NCBI RefSeq assembly: GCF_003334815.1
Contig: NZ_QOWO01000069.1
DNA from: Escherichia coli
Lineage (GTDB): Bacteria; Pseudomonadota; Gammaproteobacteria; Enterobacterales; Enterobacteriaceae
Strand: one strand, 5' to 3'
DNA length: 5,921 bases
This document shows, piece after piece, positions 571 to 5,921 of this stretch. The notes beneath the pieces are model-generated. The model made no database searches. It had not been told where the DNA came from and worked only from the letters and a program-made list of their open reading frames with translations. Position numbers and translations under genes: made by a program. Within the stretch, counting starts at the first letter, position 1, and each line of letters begins with the position of its first letter.

Positions 571-732
571 CTACTTACCGCCGGATTCGTAAGCCATTGT
601 TGCCGTAACTTCCCTGTATCCGTCCTTCAGCCGGACTTCGCACAGGCGATTCCGGGTCAGGAGTGTGAATATCAACAACGTGCAGCACACGATTAATACG
701 CACCAGATAAGGGCGTTTCCCGGTAGTTTCAT
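571..732 (-). CDS. hok: Hok-family type I toxin (small membrane-depolarising peptide), 53 aa
   Basis: Hand translation of minus strand from ATG at 732 to TAG at 571-573 gives [53 protein letters not shown], which closely resembles R1 Hok (hydrophobic N-terminus, conserved LCE and MAYESG motifs). RBS AAGGAGGAG about 6 nt upstream. Absent from the ORF track because it is under 60 aa. The symbol flmA/srnB is equally possible depending on the plasmid. Confidence 0.85.
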
Positions 733-790
733 GGTTTACTCCTCCTTGCAATTTGCACGGTAAGAGGCCATACTGACGTGGATGAGACAT
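575..790 (-). CDS. mok: Mok-like overlapping reading frame (translation of hok is coupled to it)
   Basis: 71-aa ORF in a different frame that starts upstream of hok (ATG at 790) and overlaps almost all of hok, ending 4 nt before the hok stop; this is the characteristic mok/hok arrangement. Confidence 0.6.
746..774 (+). promoter_or_regulatory. Candidate sok promoter: -35 TTGCAA (746-751), 17-nt spacer, -10 CATACT (769-774)
   Basis: Plus-strand sigma70-like hexamers opposite the mok translation initiation region, at the position of the sok promoter in R1 hok/sok. The -10 is weak (4 of 6 match). Confidence 0.4.
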
Positions 791-845
791 ACAGTGGGCC
801 TCGTGGGTTAATGAAAATTAACTACGGGGCTTTCTGCTTTCTGCC
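780..845 (+). ncRNA. sok: Sok-like antisense RNA (antitoxin of the hok/sok system); ends approximate
   Basis: Inferred from the hok/mok architecture: an antisense RNA of about 64 nt starting just after the candidate promoter and complementary to the hok mRNA leader / mok start. Coordinates estimated, not measured. Confidence 0.4.
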
Positions 846-900
846 ACACGACAGGATAACAAACCACCTTCACGTCATGAGGCAGAAAGCCTCAAGCGCC

Positions 901-940
901 GGGCACATCATAGCCCATATACCTGCACACTGACCACACT
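901..940 (-). promoter_or_regulatory. Candidate hok/mok promoter; -10 TATGAT at 907-912 on the minus strand, transcript 5' end near 900
   Basis: Minus-strand sequence from 900 downward (GGCGCTTGAGGCTTTCTGCCTCATGACGTGAAGGTGG...) matches the 5' end of the R1 hok mRNA as I recall it. TATGAT lies 6 nt upstream of that 5' end. The -35 is not clear. Confidence 0.45.
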
Positions 941-1250: not shown

Positions 1251-1970
1251 TCACGCCGCCTCCCGGAGTTTGTTCGGCACCATCCACCGCTCCATCTCAC
1301 GGACGGCATGACCGGCCTCCCTTGCCGCCATACCAGCCTCTGCGGTGACCTGCCAGAATGGCATATCCTGCCACTGCCAGCGTTCCATCCCGGCCAGTGA
1401 CGGAAAACGCTCGCCCCACTGCCAGAACAGGGTTTCCAGGTCATGCTCTGCCACCCGGTCACTCCAGCGTGCATGCCAGCTTCCGACTGTTTCCGGTGAA
1501 TGGAACGCCAGTTCGATTTCTGCCTGAGCAACCAGCGCCTGGTACGCACGGGTTTTCTGCTCTGCCTCCCTCGCCTGCTGACGGCTGTACTTCTGCATGA
1601 CCAGTGCGGATTTATGGCGACTGCGTTCCCTGACACGGAACCGCACTGACGGGAACAACTGCTCTGCTGCATCGCAGGGAAGAGGAAGAAGGCAGACCTC
1701 GCCCTGAGTTTCAATCAGCACATCGACGGCATACAGCCACTGAGAACGGTTGCCGCGCAGTTCTTCTGCGGTCAGGGACGGCATGAAAAATCGCAGGTCA
1801 GACAGCGAAATCCTGCGGCTTCCGTTCAGACAGCGGAAAAACGCCCCCGCATACGGATATTCCGCCAGCGTGTTCCCCTGATGGCGGCGTTTTTCCGTCT
1901 CCGCCACCGCCTGCCATGCGGCCTGTTGCTCTGTGCTGAGGGGAACCAGTGCCTGTGAACGTGCGCTCAT
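1251..1970 (-). CDS. psiA: Plasmid SOS inhibition protein PsiA, 239 aa
   Basis: 239-aa ORF immediately downstream of and translationally coupled to psiB (ATGA overlap at 1967-1970); length and sequence match PsiA of F-like plasmids as recalled. RBS GGAAGGAGG about 6 nt upstream. Confidence 0.9.
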
Positions 1971-2401
1971 ACCTGACCTCCTTCCGCCATCAGGATATGA
2001 ATGATGTCGTTAACGCTGTACCCCTGCGCATTCAGTGATGCCGCCAGTGCCAGTGAATGGCTGACGGCTTCCGGTGCAAACCGCCGCTGTACCTGAACCA
2101 CCGCAAACGGCTCACCACCGGCATTCACCAGAACCAGCACCCAGACCTGAGAGACATCGCCCGGTGAACATAACGCCAGGTGAAAACGTTCGTGGGCAGG
2201 CGTGAAACGGACCTGGACGGGGAAAAATCCGCCAAACTCACTGCCGTACTCGCCGTTCATCGTCCAGTTGTCCGGCGCATCCAGCTCCCGCATCACGGCG
2301 TGTGTCAGCTCACGGCGTTCATCACTTCCGGCAGCCCGGATATCTTCATATTCCTGTGCGCTCATGGTCTGTAATACATTCAGGGTCAGTTCAGTTTTCA
2401 T
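1967..2401 (-). CDS. psiB: Plasmid SOS inhibition protein PsiB (RecA inhibitor), 144 aa
   Basis: Translation from ATG at 2401 ([66 protein letters not shown]...) is near-identical to F-plasmid PsiB as I recall it. The track start at 2404 is a GTG one codon upstream; the ATG has RBS GGGAGA with a 7-nt spacer. Confidence 0.93.
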
Positions 2402-2455
2402 CACGGTATCTCCCTTGCTGCCGCCCCGTCTCCGGCGGGGCGGTGTGGTTGTTCA

Positions 2456-5521: not shown

Positions 5522-5630
5522 TGGGCTGTTCATTTACCCTGGACAGTCAGTGCGGCAGGTTGTGGCTGTATCAGCCCCCGGCGACAGGGGCTTAAACAGG
5601 TGAATGGCACCGGACACAACAACGGGCAGG

Positions 5631-5921
5631 GACCCGCCGCAACGACGTGAAGCGCGGTTTGCGAAACGGCGTTGCGCCTTACATCCCGGCGGCCTTTTGC
5701 CGGGATGCAGGGAGCGCAGGCCACGGCGCGACAGAGGCGGCGCGACCGGAACGGTCGCTGCAAGCCAGGGGTTTCGCGTCAGGGATGGAAGCCCGTCAGG
5801 GCGGAGACAGCTTCGCTGGCTCCGTTCACGACAGCCCGCCCCGTCAGGGGGACGCCCGGAAAAGGCATAAGCAGGAGAACAACAAAACAGACAGTAATCA
5901 GAGCAGCAGAAAAAAGAAGAA
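5631..5921. repeat. Copy B of the ~290-bp direct repeat; candidate Frpo/ssi-type single-stranded-DNA promoter upstream of the ssb operon (runs to the window end, so may be truncated)
   Basis: 5682..5901 is identical to 51..270; flanks diverge. Begins about 330 nt upstream (minus-strand sense) of the ssb start codon. Same internal hairpins as copy A. Confidence 0.6.

Follow-up and report, generated by a model that had tools for sequence, protein, structure and literature searches.

Among the same-strand gene pairs of prokaryotes, no other spacing is nearly as common as the -4 nt overlap of the NTGA type (PMC10666635, PMC12548453). In most prokaryotic groups, some 15% of same-strand pairs overlap, and in E. 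coli 24% of such pairs are spaced between -8 and +6 nt (PMC6728339, PMC10666635, PMC12548453). Translational coupling at such junctions is local and needs no more of the upstream gene than its last 15 nt; it drops steeply with distance and, in E. coli, usually depends on a Shine-Dalgarno (SD) sequence (PMC10666635, PMC6728339). When five overlapping gene pairs of E. coli were assayed, three were strictly coupled, menDH was coupled to about 60%, and bioBF was uncoupled (PMC6728339). The strictly coupled pairs have a predicted stable structure in the initiation region, which would block the entry of free 30S subunits (PMC6728339).

Among the closest described systems are the E. coli pairs hyfH-hyfI, astD-astB, and ydbH-ynbE (Huber et al. 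2019, 2023), which, like psiB-psiA, have an ATGA overlap, an SD sequence within the upstream gene at its 3' end, and one transcript. In these three pairs the coupling was measured, whereas for psiB-psiA it is predicted from the sequence. Translational coupling was also described for trpE-trpD and trpB-trpA (Oppenheim and Yanofsky 1980, as cited in PMC12548453). The trp operon can be likened to psiB-psiA in its adjacent cistrons whose stop and start codons overlap, and translation of the downstream trp cistron needs translation of the upstream one. The trp junctions have the -1 UGAUG arrangement, and their products are subunits of known complexes; we know of no PsiA-PsiB complex. As for the psi genes themselves, the cluster order ssb-parB2-psiB-psiA is conserved (PMC8406263), and psiB and psiA, together with ssb, yfjA, yfjB, and flmC, lie downstream of the single-stranded DNA (ssDNA) promoter Frpo2 (PMC9849209). 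In the literature consulted that mentions psiA, we found no explicit published statement or test of an overlap or of coupling between psiB and psiA.

In the present study, we examined the psiB-psiA junction in a stretch of 5,921 nucleotides from E. coli, hereafter called the window. This sequence is the leading region of a conjugative plasmid of the F type. The minus strand carries, in this order, ssb, a DUF905 gene, a gene for a ParB-like protein of 655 amino acid residues, psiB, psiA, an open reading frame (ORF) of 104 residues, and hok with the Sok RNA. The window has both this gene order and the two flanking Frpo-like repeats of the leading region (Frpo2 operon), where such repeats are expected about 5 kb apart. 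The features concerned are as follows.

5661..5917, Frpo2-like element upstream of ssb; copy of a 257-nt direct repeat that matches F
1967..2401, minus strand, psiB coding sequence, 144 residues, ATG at 2401 and TGA at 1969..1967 (ORF list, NCBIfam, annotation of L001)
1976..1984, minus strand, SD sequence of psiA, GAAGGAGGU, with the core AGGAGG at 1982..1977, within the psiB codons for Glu-Gly-Gly and 5-6 nt 5' of the ATG
1967..1970, minus strand, ATGA overlap of the psiA start (1970..1968) and the psiB stop (1969..1967) (sequence, conservation among lineages)
1251..1970, minus strand, psiA coding sequence, 239 residues, ATG at 1970..1968 and TGA at 1253..1251 (ORF list, NCBIfam, annotation of L001-L004)
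1251..1254, minus strand, second -4 overlap, GTGA, of the psiA TGA and the GTG of the 104-residue ORF (940-1254) (sequence, annotation of L001)
730-901, minus strand, Sok antisense RNA region (Rfam RF01794, 98 bits)
571-732, minus strand, hok-family toxin gene (NCBIfam NF007279)
30-286, second copy of the 257-nt direct repeat, Frpo1-like, matching F

Positions 1967-1970 read TCAT on the plus strand and ATGA on the minus strand, on which both psiB and psiA are encoded. The junction reads ...GCG GAA GGA GGT CAG GTA TGA in the frame of psiB and continues as ATG AGC GCA CGT... in the frame of psiA; the spacing of the two genes is -4 nt, and the psiA frame is -1 relative to that of psiB. A first, sequence-only reading had placed an ATGA shared by the psiB stop and the psiA start at 1967-1970, and the sequence agrees. 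The gene names that it had given were borne out by full-length NCBIfam matches above the curated cutoffs. PsiB scored 277 bits with NF010255 (Pfam PF06290), where the cutoff is 100, and its residues 1-143 align with positions 1-143 of the 144 in the profile; PsiA scored 416 bits with NF010258 (Pfam PF06952), where the cutoff is 243, and its residues 1-238 align with positions 1-238 of 239.

The ORF list gives psiB as 1967..2404. Because of the profile match and the public annotation, we place the true start at the ATG at 2401, one codon after a GTG; the same coordinates are annotated in L001, the closest plasmid record among the matches listed. This ATG is preceded at 7 nt by the SD sequence AAGGGAGA. 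The in-frame GTG at 2404, directly upstream of the ATG (GTGATGAAA), is unlikely to be an alternative start. In the case of psiA, residue 1 is aligned to position 1 of the profile, and the ATG at 1970..1968 is therefore the normal start of the family. Distant PsiA homologues align from residues 3-7 with their numbering in agreement, and psiA is annotated identically in L001-L004. A mis-called psiA start was ruled out: no start codon precedes the ATG in its frame, methionine next occurs at residue 63, and the profile starts at residue 1.

The two repeat copies (30-286 and 5661-5917) are 97% identical, lie 5631 nt apart, and bracket the block from ssb to hok. They match F with 93-97% identity at two sites, one upstream of ssb and the other downstream of hok; from the F matches at both sites, we therefore take them to be Frpo2-like and Frpo1-like ssDNA promoters. 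When the plus strand at 5600-5921 was folded as ssDNA, it was more stable than its shuffled versions (z = -3.1). The Frpo2-like element is thus predicted, with its function taken from PMC9849209, to be the probable ssDNA promoter of the operon from ssb to psiB-psiA. The Frpo2 deletion experiments in that report were read out with fusions to ssb and yfjA rather than to psiB or psiA. Going by the literature, the leading-region operon would be transcribed from this Frpo2-type promoter upon entry of the plasmid into the recipient. Neither a sigma-70-like promoter nor a terminator-like site was found at or close to the psiB/psiA junction; the only sigma-70-like promoter matches of the window lie at 907-959. 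As there is no intergenic gap, no promoter or terminator at the junction, and an Frpo2-like element upstream, psiB and psiA appear to form one transcription unit. The sequence-only reading had gone directly from the ATGA to co-translation as one operon unit. The shared operon is well supported and follows from the overlap and the published Frpo2 data, whereas co-translation is an inference from the ATGA and is probable.

The overlap itself is a known and ordinary arrangement, already entered in public annotations of plasmids of the F type and of related ones. Across psiA and psiB, the window is 98.8% identical to an E. coli IncF plasmid record, the closest among the matches listed, and this stretch matches at least 5000 plasmid records. 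A 61-nt sequence spanning the junction matches 4,184 plasmid records, all with at least 90% identity, and the 4-nt psiB-psiA overlap is annotated in every fetched record that has both genes in its gene table. The junction of F (L016) is identical over the psiB codons given above, from GCG to TGA, and the ATG AGC that follows. The gene order in the window agrees with the ssb-parB2-psiB-psiA cluster, and nothing of substance differs from the psiB-psiA of F and other plasmids of the IncF/IncI complex. The base after the psiA stop differs in F, so that the ORF joined to psiA by GTGA in the window may not be shared by F. In the gene table of PLSDB, psiB is listed and psiA is not for F (NC_002483) and many other records; as F has an intact psiA ORF of 239 residues at 9983-10702, this gap is one of the annotation table and not of the sequence.

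We then compared the junction with that of F, of IncK2/Z, Salmonella IncFII, and pESI-like plasmids (L002-L004), and of more distant loci, in which PsiA is 55-56% (L005-L007) or 36-43% (L008-L012) identical to that of the window. The distant loci were found by a search of cluster representatives at 50% identity and by contig look-ups. Inspection of the junction in homologues had been proposed as a check by the sequence-only reading. In F and in L002-L012, psiB lies immediately upstream of psiA and the junction is ATGA; the four columns of the ATGA are invariant in all 10 non-redundant psiB-psiA lineages, with PsiA identity down to 36%, whereas in the flanking columns of these lineages the commonest base averages 0.62. 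The minus strand of the window contains the tetranucleotide ATGA 33 times, against about 18 expected occurrences. The overlap taken alone is thus not beyond chance; its persistence across the lineages is.

In these lineages, the sense codon just before the psiB stop is GTA, GCA, GAA, CAA, or TTA, and the last residue is accordingly V, A, E, Q, or L. The third base of this codon is always A, as the ATG of psiA needs. Similarly, a G-rich SD motif (GGAGG, GGAGGG, or GGGGG) is found 5-8 nt upstream of the psiA ATG in every psiB-psiA lineage, in differing codon phases, so that the psiB residues encoded there are EGG, EED, EG, QG, or GG. As the A and the position of the SD motif are constant despite the varying residues and phases, selection acts on the nucleotides and not on the protein. 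The psiA initiation site, as judged from these alignments, evidently imposes nucleotide-level constraints on the C-terminus of PsiB. We are almost certain that the overlap is real and under selection.

The SD sequence of psiA in the window, GAAGGAGGU, forms a duplex with the 3' end of 16S rRNA of -12.6 kcal/mol, the strongest among the seven genes of the window; only 0.64% of positions in the coding sequences of the ParB-like protein, psiB, and psiA are as strong. At the sequence level, the junction thus belongs to the NTGA class, with the stop and the start on the same strand sharing ATGA and an SD sequence within the 3' end of the upstream gene.

The most distant PsiA lineages (L013-L015, 31-34% identity) do not contain psiB within 1.5 kb of psiA, as checked by tblastn, which detected psiB in L012 as a positive control. 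Between the gene for a ParB-like protein and psiA, these psiB-less loci have a spacer of about 45 nt that holds a GC-rich hairpin. As psiA stands there without an adjacent psiB, it must initiate independently. The SD energies range from -9.4 to -12.6 kcal/mol at the overlapped junctions against -5.3 to -7.4 kcal/mol for psiA in the psiB-less loci, a contrast that rests on a small sample of three such loci. To judge from the sequences, psiA can evidently be expressed without psiB; where psiB is adjacent, the junction is always exactly -4 and the SD sequence is stronger. In L013, L014, and L015 (at position 1501 in each), psiA still begins with ATGA, which may be due to chance or may be a leftover of an ancestral overlap.

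We consider that psiA translation probably depends on psiB translation, mainly through termination-reinitiation. On ending at the UGA of psiB, a ribosome would sit directly on the AUG of psiA, and the strong SD sequence would hold it there by pairing with 16S rRNA; most PsiA synthesis would then be begun by ribosomes that have just finished PsiB. The amount of PsiA made would thereby follow that of PsiB in the short period of early expression, and some de novo initiation at the strong psiA SD sequence would probably add to reinitiation. Termination-reinitiation is favored because a -4 overlap with an intragenic SD sequence is the classic architecture and is kept down to 36% PsiA identity. Our confidence in coupling is lowered by the facts that the strong SD sequence could recruit free 30S subunits, that no conserved masking structure was seen, and that not all tested pairs are coupled. 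These same facts bear on the view that free 30S subunits initiate independently at the SD sequence of psiA and that the ATGA is kept for compactness or to spare the psiB stop and the psiA start. Such initiation would agree with an SD sequence that is the strongest in the window, with a start region of about average accessibility, with the psiB-less loci in which psiA initiates alone, and with the precedents of bioBF, which is uncoupled, and menDH, in which about 40% of initiation is de novo (PMC6728339). However, an inert overlap should drift to -1, +n, or -8, and exactly -4 is kept in all 10 lineages; moreover, an SD sequence within a translated ORF would be largely covered by elongating ribosomes, and most of the -4 pairs tested are coupled (PMC6728339). 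We therefore regard independent initiation as the principal rival, a possible but rather unlikely explanation.

Coupling could also arise by unfolding of the RNA, if a hairpin hid the psiA start and ribosomes translating psiB opened the site for new 30S subunits. The window does have a local hairpin, CAUAUCCUGA paired with UCAGGUAUG, which buries the AUG and leaves the SD sequence in the loop (-16.8 kcal/mol in a 70-nt context). However, the fold of 120 nt around the junction is not unusual (z = -1.3; 21 of 200 shuffled sequences fold as well), and L002, L003, and L004 have either no such hairpin or a different one; in L002, a V-to-A codon change breaks a pair of the hairpin without compensation. 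Among the loci compared, we found no conserved structure that masks the psiA start. In 11 loci, the mean unpaired probability from the SD sequence to the AUG was 0.22-0.66, compared with about 0.4 in the 180 nt around this segment, and the start region was not consistently less accessible than its surroundings. In this respect psiB-psiA differs from the strictly coupled E. coli pairs, for which a stable structure of the initiation region is predicted (PMC6728339). A conserved masking structure was thus ruled out as a general mechanism, the hairpin being not conserved and the fold unremarkable, and we consider unfolding by psiB-translating ribosomes to be improbable. A programmed -1 frameshift at the overlap, yielding a PsiB-PsiA fusion protein, would fit the -1 frame of psiA relative to psiB, and four database proteins (P0003, P0015, P0097, and P0106) carry both the PsiA and the PsiB Pfam domains. 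However, there is no slippery heptamer before the psiB stop (GGU CAG GUA UGA), the clusters of two-domain proteins are tiny (13, 1, 1, and 1 members) compared with thousands for the separate proteins, and the two-domain proteins, which derive mostly from assemblies of raw reads, agree with indels of a single base. A frameshift is almost certainly not the explanation; the four proteins probably reflect such indels, or faulty assembly, where psiB and the -1-frame psiA overlap.

In plasmids that have diverged widely, the psiA start stays joined to the end of psiB, the anti-SOS gene, which argues for co-production of the two proteins in the first minutes after conjugative entry. The tight conservation of the junction suggests that this co-production matters, and hints at a functional partnership. 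PsiB and PsiA might be needed in a fixed ratio and act together, with PsiA as a possible partner, chaperone, or antagonist that tunes the inhibition of RecA by PsiB; this reading, which we put forward tentatively and consider unlikely, was drawn because an exact -4 spacing and a strong intragenic SD sequence are kept to 36% PsiA identity and constrain the C-terminus of PsiB. In its favor, we counted that, in E. coli, short overlaps show a 4.5-fold enrichment for subunits of heteromeric complexes (PMC10666635) and that deletion of psiA lowered the mating-induced SOS response (PMC8406263). Against it, we counted that psiB alone inhibits SOS (PMC8406263) and that three lineages have psiA with no psiB next to it. 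If true, the partnership would give the functionless PsiA a role. As the commonest type of prokaryotic gene junction, the overlap matters little in itself, and it is a modest lead toward a functional link between PsiA and PsiB.

At the other end of psiA, the GTGA overlap extends the chain of -4 overlaps from psiB through psiA to the 104-residue ORF. This ORF has its own SD-like sequence, GGGAGG (-10.3 kcal/mol), and matches phrog_27524, to which no function is assigned. An overlap of psiA with the next gene was also seen in L002, L003, L005, L008, L009, L012, and L015. The gene after psiA differs among the other lineages (for example, a DndB-domain protein in L009), and the overlap with psiA is usually 4 or 8 nt.

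Upstream of psiB, a GC-rich hairpin, GCCGCCCC...GGGGCGGC (about -20 kcal/mol), lies at 2415-2445 between the stop codon of the ParB-like gene and the SD sequence of psiB. It has no T-run on the coding strand and is not an obvious terminator. A hairpin of this type was found in all 14 loci examined (in the range L002-L016), and in the psiB-less loci it precedes psiA. The hairpins of L011 and L015 use a different stem sequence, which suggests that the structure is conserved; candidate roles are in mRNA stability, in processing, or as a feature of the ssDNA.
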